From a virus: a DNA stretch of 64,000 nucleotides. Positions 4,675 to 63,755 of the stretch are shown here, in pieces. The stretch is from the IMG/VR virus record IMGVR_UViG_3300017991_000003, positions 32,001-96,000 of that record, one strand, 5' to 3'. Both the position numbers and the translations under genes were made by a program. Each line of letters starts with the position of its first letter. The first letter of the stretch is position 1. The notes beneath the pieces are model-generated. The model saw nothing but the letters and a program-made list of their open reading frames with translations, did not search any database and was not told where the DNA came from.

Positions 4675-4715
4675 TGCTGGTAGCCGACGCTCCTAACCGT
4701 AAGCTATAGCTGAAC

Positions 4716-6112: not shown

Positions 6113-6125
6113 GACTAGGTGACCG

Positions 6126-6947: not shown

Positions 6948-6956
6948 TCTAAGACC

Positions 6957-9900
6957 ATGGCCCTCGAAAATCTCCGTCCCGATCTCAAGATCGAGCAGAA
7001 GTTCGTGACGGCGGCGCCGCTGGTGCCCGCGTCCTCGCTGCCCGTGGTGCTAGTCGGGCTCAACCGCGACCTTCGCTATCGGCAGCTGACCGACATTAGC
7101 GCCTGGAACGGCGGCGCCTCGGTCTCTGATGTTGACTTCCCCGGTTGGCTTGGCGGTGCCGTTGAGGACACGGACCAGACCGATACGTACCTGCGGCCTG
7201 TCGTCGAGGTCTACCACGACACCTACGGGTGGGCGGCCATCACGGACGACGTGACCTTCAAGAACATGGCGACCGCCCCGGCGATGGACATCGCCTCGGG
7301 TGTCGACGCGGTGTTCGAGGTCGCATCTGGCACGACCGGAGCCTTCGCTGTGGACACCAGCGCCCCGGCGGCTAGTGCCTTTACCGACGCCAACGCGGAC
7401 TTCATCGATGACCAGGTGGCAGCTGGGGACGTCATCAAGGTCGATGGGATCGCCACCTACGAGGTCAACTCTCTAGGCCTTGTGAGCGACACCGAGCTCG
7501 AGGTGCGCCGCATGGACAAGGGTCCCGGCACGGCGGGGGCGGCCGAAGCGGCCAAGATCTTCGTCAGCGCGGAGGACACCAACGACGTTCGCACCCTCTA
7601 CAACACCTCGACGGGGTTCACCGCTGCGGGCGGCTTCACCTCCTCGGGTGTGGCTGTGGGCGATCTGGTCCGCCTAGATCACTGGAACATCGTCAGCCAG
7701 GGCTCAGGCATCACCTTCGAGGCGGTGGGCGCGGATACCACGACTGCGAACAACGCCGGCGACACCGCGAGCGCGACCGAGCGCGTCGTGACGCTGCCGA
7801 CCGCTGACGCGCTTACGGCCTGGGACAACACCACTTACACCGGTGGTGTCTTCTTCACGGCCAACGCAGACGGCGACCTGATGCCGGCTTTCTACCTGAG
7901 CCACGCTGTGGCGGGCCCTGAGACTGTGGCCATCGCCACCGACTACGGCTCCAACCACCTGGTGGATACTGAAGACGCGGACTTCGGTGTGAAGTTCCAG
8001 TTGTTCGACTACGTCTATCGCACGGCCAGCGCCAGCACCACGGGTGCTTTCACCGCTGAGAACGCTGACGGCTATCGGACCTTCACCGACTCCTCGGTCA
8101 CGACCTTCAACGGCAGCCCGACTACTGTTCAGCTCGGCGATCACATCGCTATCAAGGACGAGGATGGGATCTACCGCCCGGTCTTCCAGGTCATCGGCTT
8201 TGGTGACGCGGGTAGCCCGGCCAGCGAGAGCCCGGATACGGACGCCACTCTGGCGGTCCAGCAGTTCGGTGACATCCTCGGCTCGGCGGTCTTTGCCTCC
8301 AACGTCGACTATGTGATCCTCGGAGCCGAGGTCGAGCAGGAGTACCTGGGCGCGACCATCTCGGCCGAGAACGCCGACGCCTACGGTGCTACGACCCGCC
8401 TGCTTGAGGCGACCGGTGAGGACTTCAACGCCGATGGCGTGACCGCTGGCGATCTGGTCTTCAGCGACTCTGGCACCCTGATGTTCATCGTGGTGCAGGT
8501 GGGTGACACCGTGAGCCCGCTGACCTACGACACCCTCGTGGTCGTGGATCACCCCAACGCCGGTACTACTCTCGGGACGACCGATACGATCGCTGAGTTC
8601 GGCTACAGCGTCCGCACCTCGGCTCGCTCTGACTTCCAAGTCAAGCGAGTGGTCGACGCGGACACGCTCGAGATCACCGCGCTCTCGACGACCCCGAACG
8701 TGATTCCGGGGACTCGCTCGATCCGCGGCGCTATCTACTTCCAGACGGCTCCCAGCATTGCGGCCAGCCCCGACGAGCTAGGTACCAACCCCGTGCTGGT
8801 GACTGCTGGCGACTCCGACAGCGCCATCAACTACACCATCGAGAAGACCCTGAGCGGGGCCTCTCTCGAGGGCGATGTCTATGTCACCTACGCGGAGATC
8901 CTGAACACGAACAGCGCTTCGCTGCTCAGCTTCAACTCCTCGACCGTCACGGACGTTCTGGGCGACGCGGTCCCGGGTAACCCGCTGGGTCTGGCTGGCG
9001 CCATCGCTGCCCAGAACACCGATGCGACCATGTACGCGATCCAGGTGACCGCGGACACCTCGGCTGCGTGGCAGACGGCTCTCGAGGTCGCCAAGACCGA
9101 CACGGTCTACAGCCTCGTGCCGCTGACCCAGAACGACACGTACCTGACGCTCTTCCAGAGCCACGTGACCACGCAGAGCCTGCCCGACAACAAGCGTGAG
9201 CGGATCCTCTGGCAGTCCAAGTGGTTCAAGACCCAAGTCGACCGCACGTCCTATGACTCCTCGGTGGACACGTCCAACGCCACGGTCAGCCGATCGGCGC
9301 TCGGTGTTCAGACCCTGACGGTCTACAAGGACGTCGTGGCCCTTGGGGTCATCATCGGTGACGAGGTCACCATGACGACCTTCAACGGCACTTCCGAGGT
9401 CTCGGTCTCCGGCCGGATCACGGACATCGACAACACGACGCCGGCCCAACCGGTCCTGACGATGGTGGCGGACGGCAACGTCCCGCTCTCGACCACGGAT
9501 CTGACGGTTCTGACCTACGACATCAAGTCGAAGAGTCTGTCTCAGACGGAGCTGGCCACGTCGGTCACGACCTACCTCACGGCCCTCAGCGAGCGCCGCG
9601 TCCGCAACATCTTCCCCAGCCGCTATCAGGTGACCTTCACCGACACGACGGGGATCTACGACTCGGGCCTCGGCGATGTCGAGGATTACGAGGTCGGTGG
9701 TGAGTACGTCGGAGCCATCATGGCAGCGCTGCGTCAGGCTCGCGGGCCGGCCCAGCCGCTGACCAAGGTTGCCGGCTCGGGTATCCAGCTCGTGATCGAC
9801 CCCTTCAGCGACTCGGTGACTCTGCAAGACCAGATCATCGATGGCGGCGGCTTCTACATCGAGCAGCCGGCTGGTGAAGGCGGTTCGGTCCAGGCGATCC

Positions 9901-10214
9901 GCGCCCTGACCACGGACGTTACGACCCTGACCTTCGCCGAAGAGTCGGTGACGAGCCAGGCTGACAACTTCGCCCGGAAGCTCCGCGGCGCTTTGAAGCC
10001 TATCCTCGGTCCCTACATCCTGGATGAGGGCTTCTACACGCTGGTCAGCACCATCGCCTCCGGCGTGGTCAACAGCGTGGTTCCCGACGAACTGAAGGAC
10101 GCCCTGCTCCTCTCGATCACCGAAGACGAGACCGCGGCCGACAGCTTCATCATGGAGTACAAGATCGACGTCTGGTTCTCCGGTGCCCGCGGCACGATCA
10201 CCATCTACATCTAG
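6957..10214 (+). CDS. Large beta-rich virion structural protein (candidate tail sheath)
   Basis: 1085-aa ORF, Thr/Ser/Asp/Gly-rich with repeated small GD-x-V beta-like segments; followed by a tube-sized gene; product by context only. Confidence 0.6.
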   Translation: MALENLRPDLKIEQKFVTAAPLVPASSLPVVLVGLNRDLRYRQLTDISAWNGGASVSDVDFPGWLGGAVEDTDQTDTYLRPVVEVYHDTYGWAAITDDVTFKNMATAPAMDIASGVDAVFEVASGTTGAFAVDTSAPAASAFTDANADFIDDQVAAGDVIKVDGIATYEVNSLGLVSDTELEVRRMDKGPGTAGAAEAAKIFVSAEDTNDVRTLYNTSTGFTAAGGFTSSGVAVGDLVRLDHWNIVSQGSGITFEAVGADTTTANNAGDTASATERVVTLPTADALTAWDNTTYTGGVFFTANADGDLMPAFYLSHAVAGPETVAIATDYGSNHLVDTEDADFGVKFQLFDYVYRTASASTTGAFTAENADGYRTFTDSSVTTFNGSPTTVQLGDHIAIKDEDGIYRPVFQVIGFGDAGSPASESPDTDATLAVQQFGDILGSAVFASNVDYVILGAEVEQEYLGATISAENADAYGATTRLLEATGEDFNADGVTAGDLVFSDSGTLMFIVVQVGDTVSPLTYDTLVVVDHPNAGTTLGTTDTIAEFGYSVRTSARSDFQVKRVVDADTLEITALSTTPNVIPGTRSIRGAIYFQTAPSIAASPDELGTNPVLVTAGDSDSAINYTIEKTLSGASLEGDVYVTYAEILNTNSASLLSFNSSTVTDVLGDAVPGNPLGLAGAIAAQNTDATMYAIQVTADTSAAWQTALEVAKTDTVYSLVPLTQNDTYLTLFQSHVTTQSLPDNKRERILWQSKWFKTQVDRTSYDSSVDTSNATVSRSALGVQTLTVYKDVVALGVIIGDEVTMTTFNGTSEVSVSGRITDIDNTTPAQPVLTMVADGNVPLSTTDLTVLTYDIKSKSLSQTELATSVTTYLTALSERRVRNIFPSRYQVTFTDTTGIYDSGLGDVEDYEVGGEYVGAIMAALRQARGPAQPLTKVAGSGIQLVIDPFSDSVTLQDQIIDGGGFYIEQPAGEGGSVQAIRALTTDVTTLTFAEESVTSQADNFARKLRGALKPILGPYILDEGFYTLVSTIASGVVNSVVPDELKDALLLSITEDETAADSFIMEYKIDVWFSGARGTITIYI

Positions 10215-10232
10215 TCCCGACGGACCTGAAAC

Positions 10233-15668: not shown

Positions 15669-17387
15669 TCAGATGATCGCGTTCCAGTCGACGATGACAC
15701 CGGCCTCGTCGAGCAAGTCGTAGAACCAGGTCACGACGTGGACGTAAGCACCTAGCGGGTCCTTGGGGTGGCGCTTCTGGGCCTCCTCGCGCTTGGCACC
15801 GAACTCGTCGGTCTTGGCCAGCTTGTGCTTCTTGCAGGTCTGGCCGAGCAGGCTGAGCAGGGCACGCTGCTGAGTGGAGTTGAGCTTCGAGTAGTCAGGG
15901 CGCACGTTCTCGTCGAACGGCTCCTCTTCTTCCTCTTCTTCCTCTTCCTCCTCCTCGCCAGGCTCCTCCTCGTCCTCCTCCTCAAGATCGTCGAGCTCCT
16001 CATCGCTGGGCTCTTCTTCGTCGAGGTCCTCCTCGTCGAGCTCCTCGTCTTCTTCCTCGTCAGGCTCCTCCTCGTCGAGGTCCTCGTCTTCTTCCTCCTC
16101 CTCGTCGAGGTCCTCCTCGTCGTCTAGCTCCTCCTCGAGCTCTTCTTCTTCGAGCTCCTCGAGCTCCTCGAGCTCCTCCTCTTCTTCCTCCACATCAGGG
16201 GCGGAGGCAGCAACCGGAGCCTCCCGCTTGCCGATCATGTCGTCAGGCGGGATAGGGGTGTGAAGAGGGCCGGAGACAGCGATAGGGAACGCGCGGATCG
16301 TGTCCTCGGGAACGCCGAGCGTATCCGCGGCCTCCGCGAGGCTGGTGGCCAGCACGTAGCGCAGCGTGTCGGAGCCGTCCTCGTCTTGGCTGTAGGCCTG
16401 GTACACGGCATGGACCGACGGGAGCCCGATATGCTCTTGCATGTAGTTGGGGTCACCATCGGGCGCGACGAAGACAGCGCTGACGCCCGGGCAGCAACGC
16501 TCAGCCGCTTCTTTGAGGCGCATCAGGCCCACGGCCCGCCACGCATCGTCAGCGCCTTCGGTCAGGTGCGAGGACGCGGCCACGAGGGCCTCGATCATCA
16601 CATCACCGTCGGTCGGCCAGCGGTCAGAGTCGTCAGTACCGGACGCGGCCCGCTTGAGCAGCTCCTGGTAGGAGTAGTAGAGGTCCAGCTGCGGCTGGGT
16701 GAGTCGGAGCTTGAGCTCGCGGTACTTGGCCTCGCCGGGCTCGAGCCCCTCGTCCTCCTCGTCGTTCATGTCCTGGATCGCCTGCTGCACCCGGCGCTTG
16801 AGGTCTGCGGAGCGCAGCGCGTGCGGGTGACCCAGGGGCTCGCAGAAGGGCAGCCACTCGGAGATGTTGTCCTCGTGGATAGCGCCGGCGCGGACGCCCG
16901 GGCTCAGCTCGACAAGCCGGTCCCAGACCACGTGGCGCAGGACGGCGGGGTTCAGGCTCAGCGACAGCAGCATGGCCCACTGGCCTGCTAGCTGGTTGGC
17001 CTTGGCCGGGTTCATGTTGAGCCGCATGTCCGCGACCTGCTCGAAGCTCTCGGCGGCCGGCAGATCACCGACAGGAGCCGCGACCTCGATCCACGCACCT
17101 TCTCGCAGGTTGAACAGGTGGCAGGCCAGCTCAGCAGTCTGAGCGCCTCGGGCCTGCTGGAGCTCGACACACCGGTCCAGACGCTTGATCGCCGGGAGCT
17201 TGCCGGTGCCGGCGAAGGGGGCTCGCTGCCCCTGTAGGAGGTTCTGGGTTGCGTACTCGGCGCGCTCTTGAGCCTCTTCGAGGGCCACCAGTGCGGCGTT
17301 CTCGGAGCCCGGCTGCGGTTGGGTAGTCGGCGCAGCAGCCGCTTTCTTCTTCGTGGCCTTCTTGGCGGCCTTCTTTTTCTTAGCCAT
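15669..17387 (-). CDS. Hypothetical protein with Lys-rich N-terminal tail and long polyacidic tract
   Basis: Start taken at MAKKKKAAKKATKKK (ATG 17385-17387); about 110 residues of nearly pure Glu/Asp/Leu. Confidence 0.65.
   Translation of the reverse strand: MAKKKKAAKKATKKKAAAAPTTQPQPGSENAALVALEEAQERAEYATQNLLQGQRAPFAGTGKLPAIKRLDRCVELQQARGAQTAELACHLFNLREGAWIEVAAPVGDLPAAESFEQVADMRLNMNPAKANQLAGQWAMLLSLSLNPAVLRHVVWDRLVELSPGVRAGAIHEDNISEWLPFCEPLGHPHALRSADLKRRVQQAIQDMNDEEDEGLEPGEAKYRELKLRLTQPQLDLYYSYQELLKRAASGTDDSDRWPTDGDVMIEALVAASSHLTEGADDAWRAVGLMRLKEAAERCCPGVSAVFVAPDGDPNYMQEHIGLPSVHAVYQAYSQDEDGSDTLRYVLATSLAEAADTLGVPEDTIRAFPIAVSGPLHTPIPPDDMIGKREAPVAASAPDVEEEEEELEELEELEEEELEEELDDEEDLDEEEEEDEDLDEEEPDEEEDEELDEEDLDEEEPSDEELDDLEEEDEEEPGEEEEEEEEEEEEPFDENVRPDYSKLNSTQQRALLSLLGQTCKKHKLAKTDEFGAKREEAQKRHPKDPLGAYVHVVTWFYDLLDEAGVIVDWNAII
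15921..16192. repeat. Low-complexity GAG/GAA/GAC codon tract encoding the polyacidic region
   Basis: Plus strand is CTC/TTC/GTC-rich with internal direct repeats. Confidence 0.8.
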
Positions 17388-18429
17388 GGGCGGGGGTCTT
17401 CTTCTTCTTGGTTCTTTTGTAGGGGAAGCAGTCAAGGCGGTTGCGGCATCGCTTGGCCTTGGCGGTGTTGCGGCTAGAGCAGGCCTTCGGGCCAGCTAGG
17501 GGCTGTCCAAGCTCTACGAGGCGATGGACAGAGTCGATGTAGGGGTCGACGACCATGGGCAGGAAGTCGGGGTCATAGGCGATCTCGTAGGCCCGGTCGG
17601 CAAGTCGGTCCCTGTCAAGATATAGCAACGAAGTGCCCTCACAGAGGTCAGGATCTAGCGGAAAGATTCCTTGACGCCCCTGCTCGACCAAGATGGCCGG
17701 GTAGAGCTTGCCTTGGTAGGTGTCCTTCTCCAGAGGGAGCGGGCCCTGCCGGGGCTTGAGCACGAAGGTTCCGGGCTCTTTGCCCCGGACGCGCGACATA
17801 CTGTCGAACTGGTCCCGCTCCTTGCTCTTCATCTCCAGCACTCGCCAGTGCCCGGTGGGCTTGATCCAGATACCGTCAGCACGGCCGCGGATCATCCACG
17901 CGTCACCGCGATTCTTGGGGTCGGGCCGACGAATGCGGATCTCCTCGTAGCGCCATCTGACACGCTCCCGGGCTAGGACCCGATCGCAGTTGTTCTCGTG
18001 GACTACCCCATCCGCATCACGGTAGGCGACGGTGTTGGTGCACACCTCCTCGGGCCTGAACCCTTCGACGACCTGGTGACAGCTCATACACCTCCACAGG
18101 CCCCAGAGGCGCCCGACGTCGCCTGTGATCTCAGGTAGGATCACGGACTGGAAGTGGTCATGAACAGCGTGCCCAGCTGCGAACAAGCGTAGCGCCTGGG
18201 GACTAAAGCCCTGAGCGTCGCCCCACATATCGTGGAGGCGCTTGAAAGCGTCTTGGACCATACACCCGTTGCAGAGGCTGCTTGGGTTGAAGGCTCTGGA
18301 GACATACCCCTCACGCTCTTCTCGACGGAGAAGCGCCTGGTCGATGGCCGGCGTCCAAGACTGATCGGCCTCGACCCTCGTCGTCATCTTGCAGATGAAG
18401 TCGACGATGTCTTGTGTGAAGGTGTTCAC
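17380..18429 (-). CDS. Putative PD-(D/E)xK-type nuclease-like protein with Cys clusters
   Basis: 349 aa; CNGC and CMSC pairs plus D...E-x-K-like RADGIWIK...VLEMKSK; weak assignment. Confidence 0.5.
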   Translation of the reverse strand: MNTFTQDIVDFICKMTTRVEADQSWTPAIDQALLRREEREGYVSRAFNPSSLCNGCMVQDAFKRLHDMWGDAQGFSPQALRLFAAGHAVHDHFQSVILPEITGDVGRLWGLWRCMSCHQVVEGFRPEEVCTNTVAYRDADGVVHENNCDRVLARERVRWRYEEIRIRRPDPKNRGDAWMIRGRADGIWIKPTGHWRVLEMKSKERDQFDSMSRVRGKEPGTFVLKPRQGPLPLEKDTYQGKLYPAILVEQGRQGIFPLDPDLCEGTSLLYLDRDRLADRAYEIAYDPDFLPMVVDPYIDSVHRLVELGQPLAGPKACSSRNTAKAKRCRNRLDCFPYKRTKKKKTPAHG

Positions 18430-39027: not shown

Positions 39028-39177
39028 TCAACTCCGGTGGTTAGTTGTAAGCGGGGCTCGGCCACCCGCACCCTCCAGCCCGTGCTAGAGCCAGGACCGA
39101 CACGTCCAAAGCACGTGGAGATTCGCCGAGGCGCAAAGAAGCCCGGACCCCGCGCGGGGATCCGAGCTCCTCAGTCA

Positions 39178-40539
39178 TCAGCCCGAGAAGGGGTCGCCGG
39201 CCAAGGGGTCCTGCCCCTCAGCCGGCTCCTTACCGTCACCGGCCTGCTGAGCCCCCGCATCCGGGAGATCCTGGAGCGCGCCCAGGGCCGATCCCGACGT
39301 CTGAACCGGCTGAGTCGCCGGAGCTTGCGTCACTTCGGGCTGGGCCGGCGGGGCAAGGGGCCCTCCAAGAGGAGGAGCGGCGGGGGCAGCGGGCGCGGGG
39401 GCTGCGGCAGGTGCGGAGCCGGGAAAGGGCAGGCCGCCACCCTGCGGGGCCGGCTGCGGCGCCGGGGCCTGCTGCGGGAAGAGGCCGCTACCCTGCGCCG
39501 GCTGCTGGAACAGCGGGGTCGGAGCAGGCTGAGGCTGAGCACCGGATTGCTGCATCGGCTGCTGCATCGGCTGCTGCATCGGCTGCTGCATCGGCTGAGG
39601 CGCCGCCCCGGCCGGCGGCATTTGACCATAACCCGCGCCGCCGGGGACCGTGCCGGTTGCTTGGGAGCCAGGACAGATCTGATCCATGACCCCCGCGTTG
39701 TAGGAGAGGCCTCGAACACCCGGGTGCTCGTCGCAGATCTGCCGGTGCAGACGCAGGATTTCACGAGCCTCCGCCTCGGAGTAGGCCGGGTAGATCTTGT
39801 TGAAGTCCACCGAGCCGGCCAGAGCCGCGAAGTCGCCCTCAGGGTTGGGGGCCATGTAGGCCGCTAGGGCTGTGACTAGCTCCTCGGTCGTGCCGAACGT
39901 CTGTCCCTGGTTCTCGCCCAAGTAGTACATCGGCATCCAGTTACCCAGCTTCGGGGCCTGCTTCTCGTGGGTGCGGTTCACGTTCCACACCGAGCCAAGG
40001 ATCGAGCGGTTCTTCATCTGACTGAAGGCCAGGAACTGATCGAGCATGGACTGGTTAGAGAACATGACCCAGCGGATGCTCCACGGGATCGTCTGCTGCT
40101 GCTTGTTGACCCAAGGGGTCATGTTGAGGACGGCCGCGGCCATTCCCAGCATCGGTTTCGGCTTACCGAGAGCGGGTCCGAACAGGTCCGGCTGACCGTT
40201 CTCGACCGGGTTACCCGCGTTATCGACGCCGGTGATGTGGGCAGCACGAACGATCTCCCACGTGGGGAAGCTAGCGTTCGGCGTGTTTTTCCACCCAGTA
40301 GCCACCCGGTAGTGCGGGATGAGGGTGACGTCGGAAAGGAAGGCGACCTGGATCTGCTGGCCGCGGGGCGCGAAGAACTCGCGATGAGGCTTGCGCTCGT
40401 CCCAGGTCTTGGACCACGGTCCGCTGCCGGCACCGATGGAGACGTTCTCGTTCTGGGCGATGGCCTGGTACTGCTGAAGGCCGCCCTGGGCTTGACCGCC
40501 TTGAGCGAAGGGGGTCGCGGGGTTCGTGGGGTCTGTCAT
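39178..40539 (-). CDS. Hypothetical protein with Pro/Gln/Ala-rich low-complexity C-terminal half and acidic tip (candidate SSB)
   Basis: 453 aa between primase and polymerase genes; disordered linker and acidic ...DPLAGDPFSG terminus reminiscent of SSB tails; assignment weak. Confidence 0.55.
   Translation of the reverse strand: MTDPTNPATPFAQGGQAQGGLQQYQAIAQNENVSIGAGSGPWSKTWDERKPHREFFAPRGQQIQVAFLSDVTLIPHYRVATGWKNTPNASFPTWEIVRAAHITGVDNAGNPVENGQPDLFGPALGKPKPMLGMAAAVLNMTPWVNKQQQTIPWSIRWVMFSNQSMLDQFLAFSQMKNRSILGSVWNVNRTHEKQAPKLGNWMPMYYLGENQGQTFGTTEELVTALAAYMAPNPEGDFAALAGSVDFNKIYPAYSEAEAREILRLHRQICDEHPGVRGLSYNAGVMDQICPGSQATGTVPGGAGYGQMPPAGAAPQPMQQPMQQPMQQPMQQSGAQPQPAPTPLFQQPAQGSGLFPQQAPAPQPAPQGGGLPFPGSAPAAAPAPAAPAAPPLGGPLAPPAQPEVTQAPATQPVQTSGSALGALQDLPDAGAQQAGDGKEPAEGQDPLAGDPFSG
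39547..39594. repeat. Four tandem copies of a 12-bp unit
   Basis: Plus strand TGCTGCATCGGC x4 read directly; encodes the QQPM repeats on the minus strand. Confidence 0.9.
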
Positions 40540-40554
40540 GATTCGTTGCGTCTG

Positions 40555-41574
40555 CTAGAGGAGGGAGGAGTATCGATCTGAGAGGTCTTGTTGCGTCAGG
40601 TACTTCGGGTCCTGATCGAGGTGGTACAGCATGCTAGGCACGCCGTGCTTCGTCAATACTTTGTTGACATTTTTGGCGGCATTCTGACCCTCGACATCGG
40701 GGTCCAGGAGGATGCCCACCAGGGACGGTTCGGAGGCTCGAATCAGCTTGGCCTTCTCCGCTGAGAAGGCGAGCCCGTTGATACCCGCGGCACGAGCCCC
40801 AAGCTGGACCAGGTGCATCGCATCAAAGGGGCCTTCAACCAAGGACAGGGGCTTACCGGCCCCATAGGGCAGTAGATGCTCGCCGAACAGGTGACGGCCG
40901 CTCACGAAAGGCCAGATCGTCCAGTACTTGAGGCCGTTTCCTGCTAGGGGCCGAACCTGTGCTCCGACGCAGCGAACGATGCCGACGTCTGGAGACACCA
41001 GGATGGGGAATACGAGGCAGGGCGCCTTGGTCGTTTTCGGGTTGTCGTATCGGTCGGTCCCCATGCCGTCGTCGGTGTAACCGGCGGGGACGGTGGTGCA
41101 GTAGAACTGCTCGATGGCAAAATCGGGATCGACCCCCTTAGCGGCCAGCACATCCCGTCCGAGGGGGAGCATCGGCACACGTAGCAGGTCAGCTAGGAAC
41201 ACGGTGTAGTCCGTGTCCGGGGTCGTACGGGTCTGTCGAGTGACGCCGGCAGCGGAGAAGTCCAGGCTTTCTAGCGCCAACTCCCGCTCTCGGGCCTTCA
41301 TCTGGAGGGCCAATCCCGCATACTGACCACCACTGAGGCGGTTCAGCTCGAGGAGCGTATCCCCCAGTGATGACAGGTGTTTACACGCGTGGCACTTCAG
41401 GAGGGTCACTCCAGGACCCACCGTCGCGGTCATCGACGGCCTTCGATCAGATCCTTTCCCATGAGTCCACGGAGCCAGCAGGCAGGAAAACTTCACATGG
41501 CGGTCCCCCGCGGGTCGAAGCTCCCCCGCTTGGGGCAGCTGGGCGAGGACGGTTCGGAGCTCTACCTCTTGCAT
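40555..41574 (-). CDS. DnaG-like DNA primase (zinc-binding plus TOPRIM-like)
   Basis: CHC2-like CLLAPWTH...CHACKH; LVEGPFDAMHL and LLDPDVEG TOPRIM-like acidic motifs; start set at internal Met to avoid overlapping the divergent fibre gene. Confidence 0.65.
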   Translation of the reverse strand: MQEVELRTVLAQLPQAGELRPAGDRHVKFSCLLAPWTHGKGSDRRPSMTATVGPGVTLLKCHACKHLSSLGDTLLELNRLSGGQYAGLALQMKARERELALESLDFSAAGVTRQTRTTPDTDYTVFLADLLRVPMLPLGRDVLAAKGVDPDFAIEQFYCTTVPAGYTDDGMGTDRYDNPKTTKAPCLVFPILVSPDVGIVRCVGAQVRPLAGNGLKYWTIWPFVSGRHLFGEHLLPYGAGKPLSLVEGPFDAMHLVQLGARAAGINGLAFSAEKAKLIRASEPSLVGILLDPDVEGQNAAKNVNKVLTKHGVPSMLYHLDQDPKYLTQQDLSDRYSSLL

Positions 41575-41632
41575 CTTTTCGGGTTCTCGGGGTTGGACTT
41601 CATAAGCTAAGACAGGGGAGGACCCCACACAC

Positions 41633-44600
41633 ATGGCCGATAACGTCCAGCTCTACGACGCGCATCTAAACCTCTGGACCCTCAGGACATCCGAGGACAC
41701 AGAAATCCACACGCCGCACCACGTGTCGCGGCTGGCGGACGGGGAGGGGCGCTTCTACAGGCCCGGACGGCCGGTACCTGTGTCGATCTACGGGACGGAC
41801 GGGGTCGAGATCAACATCGAGGCCGGCTCGATCGCTGTCAGCACAGACCACAACGAGGACTCAGTAGCGGTCTTCGGGTCGTCGACCCCTGAGGGGCTGG
41901 AAAACTTCAGGTCGCTGGTGGTGGACCCCCAGGGGCACCTCCAGACCACAGTGGTCTCAGCGCCTGGGGTGGAGCCCGTCGGGGACTCGCCCGACGCGGG
42001 GCAGCTAGGTACGGTCATCCTAGGGGTCCAGGTAGGGGCAACGCCAGCTAGTCAGGTCACGGGGGACGGTCGGACAGCCCCTCTGATCATGGACGATCGG
42101 GGCCGGCTCTTCGTCTCTTTCGGCAACTCCGTCGCGGTTCTGCCCTTCACGCAAAAGGGTGACCTACTTACTTATGACGGATCTGACGAAGTTGTCCTGG
42201 GCCCGACGGTCGACGACGCGCTTCTGACACTGGACTCCAGTACCAGTACCGGCCTCAGGTGGGTGAGCCCGGTGACGAGCTCCCCCAGCCCCGTGCTCTT
42301 CCTACGCGAGGATCTAACATGGGCTCTGCCCTCAGCAGGGGCACCGGGCGGGGCTGCGGGCGGAGACTTGGGCGGGACCTATCCGAACCCGTCTGTGGTC
42401 GCTATCCAAGGGATTTCCACTTCTGCGGCTGCGCCAACGCCTGGGCAGACCTGGGTGTACACCGGCAGCGCTTGGAGTCCGGGAAGCCCGGCTACCGGAG
42501 CTGCTACGGACCACGGGACGCTCACAGGGCTCCTCGACGATGATCACACCCAGTACATCCTGGCTGATGGCTCTCGAGACTTCTCAGGCTCAATCGGCAT
42601 GGGTGGGAATGAGATCACGGATGTGGCCTCTCCTATCCTCGTATCCTGGGCAGCTAACAAGGGTTACGTTGATGATCAGATCACCGCGTCCGTCATCACG
42701 GACCACGGCGGGCTAGGCGGGCTCGGGGATGACGACCATACCCAGTACGTGTTGGTGGCTGGCACTCGTGCGTTCACGGGCGATCAGAGCCTAGGCGGTA
42801 ACAAGATCACGAGTCTGGGGTCCCCGACCACCGCAAGCGATGGAGCCAACAAAGGTTACGTCGACGCTAACGTGGTCACGGACCACGGCGCTTTGATCGG
42901 GCTGGGGGATGATGACCACACCCAGTACATCCTGACTGCGGGGACTCGAGCCTTCAGTGGTAACCAGAGCCTAGGCGGCAACCTGATCACAAGCCTAGGC
43001 TCGCCTACTACCGCAAGTGGTGGTGCTAACAAGGGTTACGTTGACGCGGCTATCACGTCGGCAGTGATCACGGATCACGGAGGGCTTGGCGGCCTGACGG
43101 ACGACGACCATACGCAGTACGTCCTGGTCGCAGGTACTCGAGCGTTCACAGGCAGCCAGAGCCTGGGCGGTAACCTGATCACGTCGCTAGGGTCTCCTAC
43201 TGTTGTAAGTGACGCAGCTAACAAAGGTTACGTTGATGCGCAGATCCCGACGAGCCTACCCCCTAGCGGGGCTGCTAGTGGTGATCTAGGCGGCACGTAC
43301 CCCGGGCCTACTGTGGTGGCCATTCAAGGCACCGGAGTCAGTGCAAACGCTCCAAGTACTGGTGATGGCCTGGTTTACACCGGAGCGGCTTGGAGTCCGA
43401 CCGCGGTCTATCGACCTGGCGGGACGGATGTGGCTGTGGCAGACGGGGGCACCGGGGCGTCGGACGCGTCCACGGCGCGTAGCAATCTAGGCCTGACCAT
43501 CGGGCTCGACGTCCAAGCCCACTCCGCAGTTCTTGACGCTACAACGGCCAGTTACACAACCGCGGCCGAGGGTAAGCTCTCGGGCATCGAGACCAACGCT
43601 GATGTCACGGACACAGCCAACGTGACGGCCGCTGGCGCTGTCATGATCGGCACAACGGCCGCGGCCGGGGACCTGAGCGGTACCTACCCGAGCCCGACGG
43701 TCGTGGCCATTCAGGGGACTGGCGTCTCGAGCACTGCGCCGAGCTCTGGGCAGGCCCTGATCTACTCCGGCACTGTCTGGAGCCCCAGCACGCTCCCCAG
43801 CGGGGTGACGGACCACGGGGCCCTGACCGGACTCGGAGACGACGACCATACCCAGTACATCCTGGTTGGTGGCACTCGCGCCTTCACGGGCAACCAGTCG
43901 ATGGGCGGCAACCTGCTCACGTCGTTGGGGAGCCCGGTGGCGGTAACAGACGCAGCTAACAAGGGTTACGTCAATGCCTCGATCACCGCGGCCGTCGTCA
44001 CGGACCACGGGGCCCTTGACGGGCTGGCCGATGACGACCACACCCAGTACCACAACGACGCTCGGGCGCTGACGTGGTTGGGGACGCGCGACACAGATGA
44101 CCTGGACCCGAGCGCCACCCGTCTCTACATGAGCCCGGGTGAGCGCACCAAGCTCGCCGGGATCGAAGCGCTTGCCGATGTGACCGATGCGGCCAACGTG
44201 GCCGCGGCCGGCGCTGTCATGGTCGGTGACGCTGCGGGCGGTGATCTTAGCGGTACCTACGCAAACCCGTCCGTGGTCGCGATCCAGGGTACGGGTTGCT
44301 CTTCAGCAACGCCGACCGCCGGCCAGACCTGGGTCTACTCCGGGTCCCAGTGGAGTCCTGGCTCACCCGCTGTTGGTGGCGCGTCAGATCACGGAACCCT
44401 GACCGGGCTGGGCGACGACGACCACACTCAGTACATTCTTGTTGACGGTACACGGGCCTTCACAGGCGCAGTTAGTCTCGGTGGGAGCCAGATCAACAGC
44501 CTGGCTTCGCCCACGCTCCCAGCAGATGCAGCCAACAAGGGCTACGTCGACGACCAGATCCCGACGAGTCTACCCCCTAGCGGGGCAGCGTCTGGCGACC

Positions 44601-45409
44601 TTGGTGGGACCTACCCGGGCCCAGACGTGGTGGCTATCCAGGGGACCGCGGTCAACTCGGCGACGCCGACGACGGGTGAGGCCCTGCTCTACTCGGGAAC
44701 GCAGTGGAGCCCTGGGCCGATCAACTTCCTCGAGCTCAACGACGTCGATCCCACAGGCCTGACCAACCTCGACCTGTTCTACTACAGCTCGGCGTCGGGG
44801 ACTATCGTCCGGTCTAGCGGCCTCACGACCTACGCGTTCTACACGCACAGCGGATCGCACATCCACGGACAGTACGACGCAATCGACGGGGATCAGCTAT
44901 CGATCACCCAGCCGGGCGTCAACTACTCCCCGACGACCGACGCGACATACGGCACCAACACGGCGCACCTCGCTGCCCATCTGCGGGGTATCGGTCTGGT
45001 CCTGGAGGATGTCAGTCCCGCGGTCACCAAGCTCGCCGGGATCGAGGCGGGCGCTGAAGCCAACGACGTTCAGACCAAGAGCATCACGATCGAGGCGCCG
45101 ACCACGACGGAAGACATCTCGTTCTTCTACGCTCCGGTAGCGATGACGATCTCAGAGATGGTCACGGTCCTGGTGGGCTCTCCTACGCCGTCCCTAGCGT
45201 GGACGCTCCGGCACAGCACCGACAGGAGCGCTGTGGGCAACGAGGTCATCACCGGGGGATCCACGGCGAATAGTACGACGACCGGTAACGTGCTGACCTC
45301 CTTCAACGACGCAACGGTCCCAGCCAACTCCTTCCTGTGGGTTGAAACGGCGAGCCCCAGCACGAACGTGACGAGCTTCCAGCTCAGCGTTGAGTACACC
45401 GACGACTGA
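41633..45409 (+). CDS. Tail fibre / receptor-binding protein with internal repeats
   Basis: 1258 aa; seven copies of a unit containing TDHGxLxGLxDDDHTQY...GANKGYVD and five copies of a second unit DLxGTYPxPxVVAIQGT; AGGGGAGGA ribosome-binding site before ATG. Confidence 0.7.
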   Translation: MADNVQLYDAHLNLWTLRTSEDTEIHTPHHVSRLADGEGRFYRPGRPVPVSIYGTDGVEINIEAGSIAVSTDHNEDSVAVFGSSTPEGLENFRSLVVDPQGHLQTTVVSAPGVEPVGDSPDAGQLGTVILGVQVGATPASQVTGDGRTAPLIMDDRGRLFVSFGNSVAVLPFTQKGDLLTYDGSDEVVLGPTVDDALLTLDSSTSTGLRWVSPVTSSPSPVLFLREDLTWALPSAGAPGGAAGGDLGGTYPNPSVVAIQGISTSAAAPTPGQTWVYTGSAWSPGSPATGAATDHGTLTGLLDDDHTQYILADGSRDFSGSIGMGGNEITDVASPILVSWAANKGYVDDQITASVITDHGGLGGLGDDDHTQYVLVAGTRAFTGDQSLGGNKITSLGSPTTASDGANKGYVDANVVTDHGALIGLGDDDHTQYILTAGTRAFSGNQSLGGNLITSLGSPTTASGGANKGYVDAAITSAVITDHGGLGGLTDDDHTQYVLVAGTRAFTGSQSLGGNLITSLGSPTVVSDAANKGYVDAQIPTSLPPSGAASGDLGGTYPGPTVVAIQGTGVSANAPSTGDGLVYTGAAWSPTAVYRPGGTDVAVADGGTGASDASTARSNLGLTIGLDVQAHSAVLDATTASYTTAAEGKLSGIETNADVTDTANVTAAGAVMIGTTAAAGDLSGTYPSPTVVAIQGTGVSSTAPSSGQALIYSGTVWSPSTLPSGVTDHGALTGLGDDDHTQYILVGGTRAFTGNQSMGGNLLTSLGSPVAVTDAANKGYVNASITAAVVTDHGALDGLADDDHTQYHNDARALTWLGTRDTDDLDPSATRLYMSPGERTKLAGIEALADVTDAANVAAAGAVMVGDAAGGDLSGTYANPSVVAIQGTGCSSATPTAGQTWVYSGSQWSPGSPAVGGASDHGTLTGLGDDDHTQYILVDGTRAFTGAVSLGGSQINSLASPTLPADAANKGYVDDQIPTSLPPSGAASGDLGGTYPGPDVVAIQGTAVNSATPTTGEALLYSGTQWSPGPINFLELNDVDPTGLTNLDLFYYSSASGTIVRSSGLTTYAFYTHSGSHIHGQYDAIDGDQLSITQPGVNYSPTTDATYGTNTAHLAAHLRGIGLVLEDVSPAVTKLAGIEAGAEANDVQTKSITIEAPTTTEDISFFYAPVAMTISEMVTVLVGSPTPSLAWTLRHSTDRSAVGNEVITGGSTANSTTTGNVLTSFNDATVPANSFLWVETASPSTNVTSFQLSVEYTDD
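42507..43250 (+). repeat. Four tandem in-frame copies of a ~186-bp (62-aa) repeat in the fibre gene
   Basis: DDDHTQY codon strings recur at about 42537, 42731, 42911 and 43101. Confidence 0.85.
43801..44560 (+). repeat. Three further copies of the same 62-aa repeat interleaved with AIQGT-motif units
   Basis: DDDHTQY codon strings at about 43845, 44033 and 44413. Confidence 0.8.
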
Positions 45410-46545
45410 TGAGTGACTTCCTAGTCCAGCGCGATCAGACCGACGTGCCCACCGCCGGCACGACTGCGTCGATCACCGCCGTCTCGAGCCTGAACTCTGC
45501 ATTCGAGATGATGAGCAGCAACCGCCGGATGTCTGGCGGCCCCTCTGCGGTTACGACCAACCAGGAGGCTGATGACCTCTCCGCGGCCGGCGTGCTCACA
45601 GACACGAGCACGATCACCTACTCGCGAGTCTCCGGGTCGAGCTCGAACACGATGCGCTGCGCCATGGAGGTGGTGGAGTACACGGGCCCAGCGGGCGGCC
45701 CCAACGAGTTCATCGTGCGGGGGCGGTACACAGGTCTACTGACCGGCGGCACCAACTCAGTAAGTGTCACCGTGTCCGGTGTCTCTGACAAGGACAGGTG
45801 TATCCCGATCATCACCGGCATCTTGTGCGAGGACACAACGGACGGGGGTGCCCGGGCTACCGGTCTGGTCCTGCTCACAAACGCGACTACCGCAGTGGTC
45901 TATGCAGGCGGGTCCGCCTCTCGTGTGACTGTGCACTTCACGCTAGTTGAGTTCACTGGATCGGCGTGGACTGTCGGGCACGCTGCGGCTGGTCCTGTCT
46001 CGGCTGACTCGGGGTCCGCTACGATCGTCACGGGATCAAACGGCTCGAGCGGAACGACCGTGGATGTCGGGGACTGGGGTACCGCTTGCATCTTCGCGCA
46101 TCATGCGGGCGATCTGGGCTCGGACGCCAATCAGGCCATCGCAGATAACTGGCCCAACATCACACCCACCTCCGGGAGCACGACCTCAGTCGACTACACC
46201 TTCAACTCCCAGCACGACGGGGTCAACAACCTACACCTGGCTCACGTTCTCCAGCACGACGATATGGTCGTGCAGCGGATCACAGACACTGGCAGCCATA
46301 CCGGGGCACGGAACGTGTCGATCCCGTCCACGCTCTCGTCTATTAGCGAGGCTTTCGTGCGAGTGTGCCGAACCTCGAGCGGTGCGGGTACGGCCTACGG
46401 CCGTGGTTGGGTCAACGCCCGGCTGACTACGACCAGCAACGTAGAGCTCTGGGTCCACCGAAACGGCAACTCGATCGATACCCGCATCGAGGTTGTTGAC
46501 CTCTCTAGCATCTCCTCGGCTACCAGGAGGATCTTCGTCGTCTGA
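45409..46545 (+). CDS. Beta-rich tail fibre-associated protein
   Basis: ATG overlaps fibre stop (TGATG); Ser/Thr/Gly-rich 378-aa ORF. Confidence 0.6.
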   Translation: MSDFLVQRDQTDVPTAGTTASITAVSSLNSAFEMMSSNRRMSGGPSAVTTNQEADDLSAAGVLTDTSTITYSRVSGSSSNTMRCAMEVVEYTGPAGGPNEFIVRGRYTGLLTGGTNSVSVTVSGVSDKDRCIPIITGILCEDTTDGGARATGLVLLTNATTAVVYAGGSASRVTVHFTLVEFTGSAWTVGHAAAGPVSADSGSATIVTGSNGSSGTTVDVGDWGTACIFAHHAGDLGSDANQAIADNWPNITPTSGSTTSVDYTFNSQHDGVNNLHLAHVLQHDDMVVQRITDTGSHTGARNVSIPSTLSSISEAFVRVCRTSSGAGTAYGRGWVNARLTTTSNVELWVHRNGNSIDTRIEVVDLSSISSATRRIFVV

Positions 46546-47354
46546 TGACTGACAACATCCGAATCCAGACGGTCGACGGAGAGCGGTGGATCCGCACCTC
46601 CGAGATCGGCGGGGTCCACCACCCACACCACATCGCGCGCCTGTCCGACGGCTTGGGCGTGGTGTACAGTCCGGGCTATCCCGTCCCGGTCTCGATCTTT
46701 TCCGCAGATGGGTCGGCAACCATTACGCTTAGCGGCGGCGACCTAGCTGTTGGTCTGGACCATACCGAGGACTCGATCACGATCTGGGCGCACACCAACG
46801 CGGCGGGCTCCGGCAGCCCTGTCGCTGTCGTGGTCGACACCGATGGCCACCTCCAGGTCGACGTGCTCTCGAGCGATTGGCCGCAGCAACCTTTCGACGA
46901 ACCGGTACCAGCTGAGTACTCCGGCATGGTTATGCTCGGGGTCCAGACGGGTAGCCCTGAAGCACAAGCCACGGATGGCGCCTTCGCGCCCTTCCAGTTT
47001 GACAAGCAGGGTCGCCTGATCGTATCGATCGACCAGTCCTACCAAGGCGGGGCCTTGAAGCTGGTATCGGCCACCAAGACGAGCCCGTTCGTCGTGTGGG
47101 AGGATGATGTGCCCGCCTCTCTCCACTATGTCGACGTCTATCGTTGTTCTGGAACGTACACAATTGGCCTCCCTTCTCCCGCTGATCCCGCGGCAGCGGA
47201 TGGCCGAGTAGTCTGGATCAAGAACATAGGCACAGGCATGCTTACACTGAGTCCTGAAGGCGGGACCCTTGAGCTCAAAGCGGGGCTACTGCTAGCTAGC
47301 CGATCCTCTATCACCTTGCGCTCCAACACTGTAGACGACTGGGAGATTCTCTAA
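46545..47354 (+). CDS. Second fibre-like protein sharing the N-terminal domain of the 41633 fibre
   Basis: Residues 1-130 align by eye with the fibre N-terminus (shared HHxxRLxDG, YxPGxPVPVSI, DPxGHLQ blocks); ATG overlaps upstream stop. Confidence 0.6.
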   Translation: MTDNIRIQTVDGERWIRTSEIGGVHHPHHIARLSDGLGVVYSPGYPVPVSIFSADGSATITLSGGDLAVGLDHTEDSITIWAHTNAAGSGSPVAVVVDTDGHLQVDVLSSDWPQQPFDEPVPAEYSGMVMLGVQTGSPEAQATDGAFAPFQFDKQGRLIVSIDQSYQGGALKLVSATKTSPFVVWEDDVPASLHYVDVYRCSGTYTIGLPSPADPAAADGRVVWIKNIGTGMLTLSPEGGTLELKAGLLLASRSSITLRSNTVDDWEIL

Positions 47355-48127
47355 TGACGTTCCTACCGCTCGACACAGACTATTACGCCGCCGTCGAGGC
47401 AGGCGAGGTTCCAGGTGCGACCCTGCTCAACAAGTTTGGCAGGGCGGAGATCGGGACATCGTTGACGCCTATCAGTCGGGAGCTGGTCTACCAGACCCCT
47501 ACAACGGCCACAGTGCTGGAGTTTGTATCGGATGATGCCAACGATACGAGCGCAGGGACTGGGGCTCGGGAGATCTCGATCATTGGCCTGAACTCCTCGT
47601 GGGAGGAGGTGATGCAGACCGTCACAACAAACGGGACAACAGCGGTAGCCCTCTCGACCCCGCTAATCAGGATGTATCGGTGGTACGTGACGAAGTCCGG
47701 AACCTACGCCACGTCATCAACGGGATCACATGCCGGGACGCTGACTATCCAAGAATCTGGTGGCGGCACGGTGTGGTCGTCAATCGGCGTAACACCCTTC
47801 CCCACCGGGCAGTCCCAAATCGGGATCACGACCATCCCCATCGGTAAAAGAGGCGTCCTGCTGTCTACTCACGTGTTCGTTGACACGTCTAAGAGTGTTG
47901 ATCTGTACCTGTTTCAGCGGCCTAACGCGGACGTCGTTACAGCGCCCTACACAGGAGCGATGCGCGTTGTTCGAGAGTTCCAGGGTGTCACAGGCCCGAT
48001 TACCTACGTTCCCCGCGGAGGGGCCGGCGCATTCGTCGGGCCTTGTGATATCGGGTTTATGGGCCAGGTAACAGTTGGCACGGCCGCTGTGTCCTGCGAC
48101 TTCGAGCTGCTTCTGCTAGATCTTTAG
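47354..48127 (+). CDS. Beta-rich tail fibre-associated protein
   Basis: 257-aa ORF; ATG overlaps upstream stop (TAATG). Confidence 0.6.
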   Translation: MTFLPLDTDYYAAVEAGEVPGATLLNKFGRAEIGTSLTPISRELVYQTPTTATVLEFVSDDANDTSAGTGAREISIIGLNSSWEEVMQTVTTNGTTAVALSTPLIRMYRWYVTKSGTYATSSTGSHAGTLTIQESGGGTVWSSIGVTPFPTGQSQIGITTIPIGKRGVLLSTHVFVDTSKSVDLYLFQRPNADVVTAPYTGAMRVVREFQGVTGPITYVPRGGAGAFVGPCDIGFMGQVTVGTAAVSCDFELLLLDL

Positions 48128-50106: not shown

Positions 50107-50198
50107 GCTGGTTCTCTGGGTGGTTGTTACAAGACGTTTGTAGCCAAGGGACTTATGACCGATAGGAGACCCGAGCTGAGCACCCGGATCCCCTGTGG

Positions 50199-59491: not shown

Positions 59492-59495
59492 GAGG

Positions 59496-61816: not shown

Positions 61817-62655
61817 CGGACCACCTCTCGCCACTTCTCGGCCGCCGTACCGAGCTCCCGGCCCAGTACGATCTCATCGACGTCCGTCTGCCAGGTCATG
61901 ATGCGATCCTCGGTCCAGCGCTGCCATCGACAGAACTGCCAGAGCATGACAGTGTTCATGTTCAGGCCCAGATCACGCCGCCTGTCGTAGTCGGTGTAGT
62001 CACCTTCGGGGAGTTGCTCGAAGTACGGGACCTCTCGAAGCGCTTCGGGAACCTCAAACCCCTCAGGGAGCGGCCCGCTGAAAGGTGGCATGGTCAGGGA
62101 GTGCTCGTAGTGCGCGTTGTAGCCGGACTCGTTGATGAGCTTGAGGACCATCTCCGGGATCGACTGGAGCCCGTTGTACCGGTACTGGCGGAACACAGCA
62201 CCCGTGCACATGCCTCCCGTATCTTGCTGGTTCGGTAGGAATGATTTGTACAGAACCGGGGTGTACCCCGCCTCCAGATGCGGCTGCTGCTTGGTGAAGA
62301 AGCAGCGGGCATCGGAGAGGCGCCCGTCGTAGATCGAGATGATGAAGACGCGCGCAGGCATGGCGACCAGGAATCGAAGACCCTCCGGCCAGCCGCGGTT
62401 CTCGCGGACGTCGATGGAGATCCTCTCAGCCCGCGGAGGCACGACTGCCATGAAGTGCTCGTTGTGGGCATCCTTGGTGTGTGCCAGGATGTTTACGTAG
62501 GGGTGGTACGGAAAGAGGGCGCCAGCGCGCCGGCCTCGTTCCTCGAGGGCGGTCACGACGTCTTCTTCCCGCGTGATGCGGTTGACGTGAACCGTTTGAT
62601 GGATCACGTGACCATCGACGATGACGAGTCGATCGTGGGTTTCGAAGTTGGTCAT
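61813..62655 (-). CDS. Hypothetical protein (operon member, candidate effector)
   Basis: 280 aa; ATGA overlap with the RT stop at 62652-62655. Confidence 0.6.
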   Translation of the reverse strand: MTNFETHDRLVIVDGHVIHQTVHVNRITREEDVVTALEERGRRAGALFPYHPYVNILAHTKDAHNEHFMAVVPPRAERISIDVRENRGWPEGLRFLVAMPARVFIISIYDGRLSDARCFFTKQQPHLEAGYTPVLYKSFLPNQQDTGGMCTGAVFRQYRYNGLQSIPEMVLKLINESGYNAHYEHSLTMPPFSGPLPEGFEVPEALREVPYFEQLPEGDYTDYDRRRDLGLNMNTVMLWQFCRWQRWTEDRIMTWQTDVDEIVLGRELGTAAEKWREVVR

Positions 62656-63755
62656 GGGAGGTACGCGCGTGTCTCGGCGCTGTAGTTGGTGGGGGTGTTG
62701 TGGTGCACGTCTTGCGCGACACGCAGTTGTAGTTGGAGCGAGGCTCCTTGATCAGGGTTGATGAAGTTGACGTGGTTGACGAGGCCGGCGAGGTGGTCAA
62801 AGTTCACCGGCACAGGGCCTCGGTGCGTCAGCTCTCCCCCACGGGGACAGCGGCCGAAGTGCGCGTCGCAGATGATCTTGTGCAGCCGGGCGCGAAGCGC
62901 GCGCCGTCGAGGCCTGGGAGCGCTTAGCTTCTCGTTGACGACGACGCCGCAGACCGTCATGCGACTGCCGATGGAGCGGAATCGGATCTTTTCGGGGGCG
63001 ACCTTGTAGCCCAGCTTTTTCAGGAACCCGATGACGGGGTACTGGAACTGGTACAGCTTTCTGTAATCCGCCGTGAAGGTCATGTCGTCGCTATAGCGGG
63101 TGTACGCGATCGGCAGGAGTCTGATCTGAGTCTGCGTCTTTCGCCGGCGCTCTCCGTGGTTGTCGACCCACCGCATCGTGGGGTTGGTCCGCCAGGACTC
63201 GATCAGCTTCAGGATGCCGAAGTCCACCTGAGCCCCTGCCAGGTTGGAGAGGAAGGGGGACGTGGGGGCTCCTTGTGGTAGGCCACCATCCAAGAAGCAG
63301 GCGCGTTTGACTCTGTCAAGGAAGAGCCTGTCGGCACGTGACATCGGTTGCATGTACCCCCTGGTCAGGAAGTACTCCAGCTGCTCGAGGACGACGTGGG
63401 GAGACACGGACGGGAAGAAGTCCCGCAGATCGATGTCCAGCTTGTACCGGTGACCTACATGCGGGGCGGCGTTGGTGTGGATACCACGCTTGCGGACGTA
63501 GGCATGAGCTGCTGGGGAGGCCCCGATCCCGAGCGCTTTGAGCTCGCTGAGGATGAGCTTTTGAGCAGCCATTAGCTCCGGGCAAGGGATCTGGAGCTTT
63601 CGCATCTTCTGACGTGTCCGACCGTTCGAAAGCGTCTCGAGTACCGGGACTTCTCGACCATCCCGGGTACGCCTGGTCTTGGGGATTCGTGCGAATCGGT
63701 AGTGCTCAGCTTGAGCGGTGTCCGTCAGGACATTGAATGATGGGTAGCCAGCCAT
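62652..63755 (-). CDS. Reverse transcriptase, retron-type
   Basis: TNAAPH (NAxxH), YKLDIDLRDFFPSV, GLPQGAPTSPFLSNL (QGxxxSP), YTRYSDDMTF (YxDD), RMTVCGVVVN (VTG-like); GAGGG ribosome-binding site 6 nt before ATG. Confidence 0.8.
   Translation of the reverse strand: MAGYPSFNVLTDTAQAEHYRFARIPKTRRTRDGREVPVLETLSNGRTRQKMRKLQIPCPELMAAQKLILSELKALGIGASPAAHAYVRKRGIHTNAAPHVGHRYKLDIDLRDFFPSVSPHVVLEQLEYFLTRGYMQPMSRADRLFLDRVKRACFLDGGLPQGAPTSPFLSNLAGAQVDFGILKLIESWRTNPTMRWVDNHGERRRKTQTQIRLLPIAYTRYSDDMTFTADYRKLYQFQYPVIGFLKKLGYKVAPEKIRFRSIGSRMTVCGVVVNEKLSAPRPRRRALRARLHKIICDAHFGRCPRGGELTHRGPVPVNFDHLAGLVNHVNFINPDQGASLQLQLRVAQDVHHNTPTNYSAETRAYLP

Follow-up and report, generated by a model that had tools for sequence, protein, structure and literature searches.

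A probable tail fibre of an uncultured phage, built from interleaved repeat modules

Results

Organization of the fibre gene

The window analysed in this study is a stretch of 64,000 nt from a virus (IMG/VR virus record IMGVR_UViG_3300017991_000003, positions 32,001 to 96,000 of that record), and its main subject is a gene that specifies a long, repeat-built protein, here called the fibre. The genome is at least 193 kb in length with a G+C content of 62.5% (64% in the fibre open reading frame, ORF), and it contains genes for PolA, a primase, DnaB, a UvsX-like recombinase and a lysozyme, so that an anchor-shaft-tip architecture is found within a phage genome. From the N-terminus, the layout is anchor (aa 1-237) / B A A A A / B X C / B A A' C / B A / B Y C / tip, the shaft being the ~900 aa between the ~237-aa anchor and the ~115-aa tip (Table 1).

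An initial annotation, made from the sequence alone, had described two interleaved, in-frame repeat families in this ORF, and both were recovered by regular expressions and by repeat-finding tools. The internal periodicity is also clear from self-comparison of the protein, the best ungapped alignments scoring 470 (offset 124 aa), 443 (626 aa) and 431 (438 aa), against 59 or less in 10 shuffles. Seven A units had been counted, and there are indeed seven A heads (DHGxLxGLxDDDHTQY), starting at aa 293, 357, 417, 481, 727, 791 and 919, but only six are full units (~60 aa) and reach ...GGNxITSLxSP....ANKGYV[DN]. In the truncated copy at aa 791 the head is followed by HNDARALTWLGTRDTDDL; its tail variant (HNDARALTWLG...) is common among other fibres. 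Four A copies lie in tandem at nt 42500-43249, as annotated, with spacings of 192, 180 and 192 nt, and the program TRF finds a 180-nt period there. The B unit, ~50 aa long with the motif GDLxGTYPxPxVVAIQG...G..WSP, occurs five times as had been reported (aa 244, 550, 679, 870 and 988). A third repeat, C (KLxGIExxAxV[TN]D...), had been overlooked and is present in three copies, at nt 43570, 44146 and 45025. Duplications of multi-unit blocks (families D5-D7) had likewise been missed: the junction of A-tail and B at 43211-43340 matches 44525-44654, and the junction of C and B at 43574-43650 matches 44150-44226.

Table 1. Features of the fibre gene and of the genes downstream (positions in the window).
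Feature	Residues (aa)	Position (nt)	Strand	Remarks
Fibre gene	1258 aa	41633..45409	+	61% of residues inside A, B or C units
N-terminal anchor domain	1-237	41633..42343	+	Kept in all family members; paralogous to N-terminus of ORF 46545..47354
Unit B1	238-288	42344..42496	+	Motif and repeat search
Unit A1	290-351	42500..42685	+	Most diverged A copy; motif and repeat search
Unit A2	354-413	42692..42871	+	Nearest: A4 (85%), A3 (81%)
Unit A3	414-475	42872..43057	+	Motif, repeat search, TRF
Unit A4	478-539	43064..43249	+	Motif and repeat search
Unit B2	544-594	43262..43414	+	Motif and repeat search
Linker X	595-639	43415..43549	+	Motif GGTGASDASTARSNLGL; also in P0002, elsewhere in protein
Unit C1	640-672	43550..43648	+	KLSGIETNADVTD...; repeat families D6, D7
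Unit B3	673-723	43649..43801	+	Motif and repeat search
Unit A5	724-785	43802..43987	+	Orthologous to P0002 A unit (82%)
Unit A6'	788-830	43994..44122	+	Truncated; A head, then HNDARALTWLG... tail
Unit C2	832-864	44126..44224	+	Repeat families D6, D7
Unit B4	864-914	44222..44374	+	Motif and repeat search
Unit A7	916-977	44378..44563	+	Motif and repeat search
Unit B5	982-1032	44576..44728	+	Motif and repeat search
Region Y	1033-1124	44729..45004	+	Non-repeated, His-rich (THSGSHIHGQYDAIDGDQL); similar stretch in P0007
Unit C3	1125-1157	45005..45103	+	Family D6; predicted helix entering tip domain
C-terminal jelly-roll tip domain	~1147-1258	45071..45406	+	Predicted fold
Cassette gene 2	378 aa	45409..46545	+	Kept beside fibre in P0002, P0004/5
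Cassette gene 3	269 aa	46545..47354	+	First ~165 aa are a fibre-type anchor domain
Cassette gene 4	257 aa	47354..48127	+	phrog_8198 (unknown function), E 1.6e-17; position varies among relatives

Divergence and age of the repeat copies

The initial annotation also held that nucleotide identity between the copies is high and that the duplications are recent. Measured pairwise, identity is moderate, 64-77% between A copies and 58-67% between B copies, and it is unevenly spread within codons: on average, 79% (A) and 76% (B) of positions 1+2 are identical, as opposed to 50% (A) and 40% (B) of third positions. Since identity is concentrated in this way, the likeness of the copies that can be read by eye at the nucleotide level is a by-product of protein conservation. 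At fourfold sites, scored under identical residues, identity between copies is 0.42 for A and 0.32 for B, close to the saturation value of 0.29 expected from composition. As a calibration, orthologous segments (the anchor, the shared B-A-A'-C module and the tip, compared with the relatives P0002 and P0004) gave fourfold identities of 0.35-0.48. The copies are at the level of the P0002/P0004 orthologues (0.35-0.39), and are therefore about as old as the split of the phage lineages, so that recent duplication finds no support in this gene. A2, A3 and A4 are mutually closest (77-85%), and have a fourfold identity of 0.36-0.38 when A2 is compared with A3 or A4; their amino-acid identity of 83-88% reflects purifying selection. 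The longest exact nucleotide repeat within the fibre gene is 21 nt (11-13 nt in codon shuffles), a length that makes the gene a poor substrate for homologous recombination.

A5 is nearest to the single full A unit of P0002 (82%), and the six tandem A units of P0007 cluster among themselves. Such lineage-wise clustering indicates that arrays expanded independently in different lineages, and A2, A3 and A4 were amplified within their own lineage, long ago.

Relatives, synteny and length variation

The identical 1258-aa protein (P0001) was found on at least five contigs of up to 193 kb, from independent assemblies (ENA, Logan, JGI and IMG/VR). Proteins with the same anchor are rare, those recovered being P0002/3 (732 aa), P0005 (858 aa), P0004 (1165 aa), P0006 (697 aa) and P0007 (933 aa), with anchor identities of 49-74% to P0002, P0004, P0006 and P0007, and a search for related loci gave only two more in IMG/VR and two in JGI metagenomes. 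A megablast search with 14 kb around the fibre gene against 50,697 phage records found no match, and tblastn matched only short motifs in cyanopodophage fibres. In all same-anchor relatives the fibre gene is on the plus strand, directly after a divergently oriented Toprim primase, and is surrounded by a minus-strand replication block (with PolA, DHH phosphoesterase, Destabilase-type lysozyme and DnaB among its products). Genes of ~380 and 269 aa come next in P0002 and P0004/5, and they hold their size as fibre length changes. The cassettes of P0006 and P0007 are smaller, and their tips differ.

Recombination-driven length variation had also been proposed. Length does vary among the syntenic fibres, from 697 to 1258 aa, but the fibre gene itself offers only the 21-nt exact repeat noted above as a substrate. 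Units have been shuffled and not just multiplied, as can be seen from the linker GGTGAS..ARSNLGL, which precedes the shared module here and follows it in P0002. The loci of P0004 (L007/L008; fibre at L007 776-4273) and P0005 (L009; fibre at 776-3352) are identical in DNA sequence bar one mismatch, except for one in-register block of 921 nt. The tandem copies of this block in P0004 have 0 mismatches over ~957 nt, and the P0004 form is present in two independent assemblies. To judge from this identity, the block is a truly recent duplication, in a sister lineage only, although the short P0005 form could be an assembly collapse of a perfect repeat.

Distribution and structural relatives of the modules

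Hidden Markov models built from the fibre gene's own units were run on 120 retrieved homologues. Of these, 114 contain A (599 units, the longest array having 21), 25 contain B (at most 16 in an array) and nine contain C. When 1.84 billion representative proteins were searched with the B profile, 20,609 clusters passed a threshold of E<=1e-3 and 1,286 one of E<=1e-30; a single protein can carry as many as 36 B units. Unrelated proteins, among them P0033, P0042 and P0048 (A-B-A-B-A) and P0034, also alternate A and B, which indicates that interleaving is a general building scheme. A and B are thus old, separate and widespread fibre modules. Across proteins, the A head is constant while its second half is of several types, and some homologues carry YadA_head or YadA_stalk Pfam matches. 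Two proteins with 11-16 B units, P0045 and P0109, are labelled as belonging to metagenome-assembled genomes of a Nitrososphaeria archaeon and of a member of the Bacteroidota; surface proteins of cells or prophages in different domains may therefore contain B as well, unless these contigs have been mis-binned.

Only positions 27-58 of the A-unit profile match proteins of solved structure. In podophage fibres and tailspikes (23sh gp9, 4.5e-9; 8es4 Gp44; 8vbx PhiM1 gp47; 9m4c; 7xy1; 8i4m P-SCSP1u gp28) the matched segment is where the N-terminal domain ends, and the same positions also match the necks of trimeric autotransporter adhesins (TAAs; 2yo0, 4lgo, 3d9x and 3wpa). Individual A units match the Pfam families Phage_T7_tail (seven of 32 units, best E 7e-4) and YadA_stalk, and four PHROG tail-fibre families (2710, 11393, 26630 and 11338) are matched at E 8.6e-23 to 1.3e-9, each match spanning just 32-47 aa within unit A. 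Profile searches of the PDB gave no relative for the A head and nothing significant for unit B, a phmmer search of the PDB with the whole fibre gave nothing, and the literal unit motif strings were not found in the literature searched. An AlphaFold2 monomer model of A2-A3-A4 was unreliable (pLDDT 52.6), since a monomer model does not suit a fibre that is probably trimeric; with low confidence, it folds GGNxITSLG as a hairpin and NKGYVD as a helix in every A unit.

Anchor, tip and the gene cassette

The anchor domain has no Pfam match and no significant PDB profile match, and the N-terminal 236 aa retrieved nothing from a large protein database, in a search that was apparently restricted to proteins of query-like length. 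It does share 42% identity over 168 aa (E 2e-32) with the product of the downstream ORF 46545..47354 (cassette gene 3), which probably forms another appendage, a short one, at the attachment site used by the fibre. At the other end, the last ~115 aa are confidently predicted to form a jelly-roll (pLDDT 89) resembling phage fibre tips and carbohydrate-binding modules. The tip domain is a member of no Pfam, PHROG or PDB family, and yet is ~55-60% identical across more than 100 metagenomic proteins (homologues P0268-P0383), often as a stand-alone protein of 126-170 aa on phage-like contigs of ~40 kb (L012, L013). Its fold also matches the capsid cement proteins of KHP40 and Pam1.

Together with the three genes that follow it, the fibre gene forms a plus-strand cassette (41633-48127) that is an island in the minus-strand replication block (flanks 36487-41634 and 48209-51593). 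The place of the cassette is kept in relatives, with a gene content of one to four. Cassette gene 2 has no Pfam, PHROG, NCBIfam or PDB match, and none of the four cassette proteins was matched by NCBIfam. A scan of the cassette for promoters and terminators performed no better than shuffles. Recent foreign acquisition of the cassette was considered and rejected, as its G+C content of 0.628 is the same as in the sequence on either side (0.629 and 0.609) and relatives carry it at a conserved place.

Other features of the window

A bona fide reverse transcriptase (RT) gene is located at 62652..63755 (minus strand), ~17 kb from the fibre gene (53 bits on Pfam RVT_1, for which the cut-off is 29.6; phrog_2825). 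The fibre was also considered as the target of a diversity-generating retroelement (Mtd-like), and this was rejected: no pair of template and variable repeats involving the fibre was found, the direct repeats of >=60 nt in the window being internal to the fibre or part of a low-complexity tract. The repeat search covered the window to nt 64000, that is, 245 nt past the RT gene.

On the minus strand, 58757-59698 specifies a ThiF/E1-like protein (51.6 bits) beside a 666-aa protein (59496-61499) with a Prok-JAB match just below threshold (24.3 against 25 bits), and the two genes appear to be a phage-encoded pair for ubiquitin-like conjugation and deconjugation. A long, acidic, Glu/Asp-rich low-complexity tract with 12 overlapping, imperfect repeats occurs at 15909-16202, in ORF 15669..17435 (minus). 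Between PolA and the primase lies an ORF of 453 aa (39178-40539, minus) with no family match and with a C-terminal half that is Pro/Gln/Ala-rich, of low complexity and contains PMQQ repeats. Near the left end, at 41-10985, is a run of plus-strand ORFs, one of them 1085 aa in length (6957..10214). These gave no Pfam match and a single PHROG match of unknown function, so a structural module was not located by this means; if the phage is very divergent, its structural module might be this run.

Discussion

The gene at 41633..45409 probably specifies a long virion fibre of an uncultured phage, consisting of an anchor, a shaft of old modules and a jelly-roll tip, and its most likely identity is that of a tail fibre and receptor-binding protein. 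The annotation as a fibre is upheld by the PHROG families, by the motif in A that is common to podophage fibres and TAA necks, and by the fibre-tip-like jelly-roll, while its location on the tail is presumed. The protein belongs to a known class of modular, repeat-built phage fibres, the modules of which are abundant yet uncurated and without solved structure.

A working model can be put forward in which the fibre is a homotrimer that docks via its anchor, at the same virion site as the product of cassette gene 3, as the common anchor suggests. Each full A unit ends in a sequence (GGNxITSLxSPxxxxDAANKGYVD) that would form a hairpin and the start of a helix, and so could act as a neck-like node keeping the three chains in register. 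The number of units would set the length and reach of the shaft, with the units serving as spacers, and the jelly-roll tip would bind a receptor or glycan. The units themselves are old modules under purifying selection, and length within the family would shift through rare unequal recombination and module exchange rather than by an active hypervariable mechanism at this gene.

A virion appendage other than a tail fibre, such as a head fibre, decoration fibre or collar whisker used for loose adhesion, is a rather unlikely alternative, but one with several points in its favour. There is a match to phrog_2647 ('head decoration', E 3.8e-17), the tip shares its fold with the two capsid cement proteins, the gene lies outside any recognisable tail module, and the tip is highly conserved and often found as a small protein on its own.

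It is improbable that the repeats are recent duplications, as the initial annotation held, forming a recombination hot spot where rapid changes in copy number would alter host range. Nucleotide identity (58-77%) is enough for the copies to be recognised, the exact repeats of 17-21 nt are longer than those of the codon shuffles, relatives differ in fibre length, and P0004 carries a perfect tandem duplication of 921 nt that is absent from P0005 on otherwise identical DNA. However, the fourfold sites are near saturation and as diverged as those of orthologues, identity resides in codon positions 1+2, the 1258-aa protein is unchanged in several independent assemblies, and the difference between P0004 and P0005 could stem from assembly collapse. 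An exact repeat of 21 nt does not exceed the minimum length that efficient homologous recombination usually requires, and neither near-identical copies nor the long perfect tracts of a recently expanded, contingency-type locus are seen in the fibre gene.

A non-virion adhesin of the TAA type, carried by the phage as a moron, is very unlikely. The likeness of the A motif to YadA_stalk and TAA necks, and the YadA_head and YadA_stalk matches of some homologues, would fit such a protein, but Pfam searches found no YadA anchor or other TAA domain in the fibre, the cassette position is kept in related phages with a paralogous short fibre beside it, and the tip resembles the ends of phage fibres. The idea that mis-assembly created the pattern of repeats, or that the ORF is no real gene, is effectively refuted: although the source is metagenomic, repeats are prone to mis-assembly and assemblers disagree on P0004/P0005, copies only 58-77% identical cannot confuse an assembler, the same protein is present in the ENA, Logan, JGI and IMG/VR assemblies, and the frame is open for 1258 codons at 64% G+C with conservation at the protein level among relatives.

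For the probable phage fibre, one close comparison is with T7-type podophage fibres and tailspikes (T7 gp17 class, PF03906), in which the N-terminal domain ends with, and the trimeric helix starts from, a motif of 30 aa (G-x-x-(I/L)-x-x-(L/V)-x-x-P-x4-DA-x-(N/T)-K-x-Y-V-D), solved examples being the six podophage structures matched by the A profile. This motif is the second half of each full A unit. In the P-SCSP1u fibre, the N-terminus comprises a barrel of the jelly-roll type, together with an alpha-helix, and three subunits form a homotrimer (PMC10575957). T7-type fibres carry the motif once, after a jelly-roll adaptor-binding domain, whereas here it occurs six times, inside the shaft, and is preceded each time by a DHGxLxGLxDDDHTQY head without solved counterpart. 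Membership of the T7 type was rejected: the whole protein, in which an N-terminal adaptor- or nozzle-binding domain of ~150 aa would be expected, has no PF03906 match, only the terminal 30-aa motif being in common, inside the A units. The anchor is unrelated to PF03906, and a genome of at least 193 kb is not that of a T7-like phage.

The same hairpin-to-helix motif forms the neck and stalk connectors of TAAs (PF05662 YadA_stalk; BadA 3d9x, VompD 4lgo, AtaA 3wpa and SadA 2yo0/2yo3), where it recurs along a modular, trimeric fibre, interleaved with other repeats, according to the same building logic. In contrast, the protein described here is a phage gene product with neither membrane anchor nor YadA head repeats, and classification as a TAA was rejected, as it has no match to YadA_anchor, YadA_head or YadA_stalk and the likeness is at the level of the motif. 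Unit B overlaps two uncharacterised families of unknown function, DUF5907 (PF19264) and DUF6087 (PF19565), the thresholds of which are passed by proteins with B arrays (P0023, 62.6 bits on DUF5907; P0121 and P0126, 70 and 46 bits on DUF6087). The fibre is below threshold on both, single B units match weakly, and neither family has a known structure; membership was rejected, as Pfam reports neither for the fibre at E<=0.1, and the B units are relatives of these families at a distance.

In overall plan, an anchor followed by a repetitive trimeric shaft and a receptor-binding tip, the fibre is comparable to the long, repeat-built tail fibres of myophages and siphophages, such as the shafts of T4 gp34/gp37, lambda Stf and the collagen-repeat proteins that act in host range in Streptococcus thermophilus phages. 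In such fibres the number of repeats varies from one phage to a related one, and module exchange alters them. No sequence homology was detected to the repeats of these proteins, and the A head, B and C are other modules. The tip can be likened to those of Agrobacterium phage 7-7-1 (9rkv) and Klebsiella phage KP1 gp12 (9f4b), to PBSX XepA (6i56) and YomS (6i5o), and to carbohydrate-binding modules of the CBM6/32/35/36/discoidin type, but sequence identity to these jelly-rolls is 5-15%, and the fold is a generic one with no assignable ligand site.

A bolder proposal, put forward tentatively, is that the A head and B are two very widespread building blocks of fibre shafts that have so far escaped structure determination and proper curation, and that the A head is a threefold metal-binding node which locks the register of the trimer together with the neck motif. 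The head (DHGxLxGLxDDDHxQY..G.R) has two invariant His residues and invariant Asp, Tyr and Arg. Ions coordinated by His are found in the T4 fibres gp37 and gp12, and by analogy there would be six His per level of the trimer. If true, the fibre would illustrate, in compact natural form, a general 'Lego set' from which phage fibres are built and which could be used to engineer fibre length.

Repeat-built fibres are a standard means by which phages reach their receptors, and that overall picture is unchanged. The gene does provide a worked example of how the nucleotide likeness of in-frame repeats can stem wholly from protein conservation and not from recency. Three shaft modules and a conserved tip have been delimited that are abundant in metagenomes and without a Pfam or PDB family matching the query, which should aid annotation in uncultured phages. 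The family also shows how fibre length evolves (697-1258 aa) while anchor and tip stay fixed, a point of relevance to the engineering of host range.

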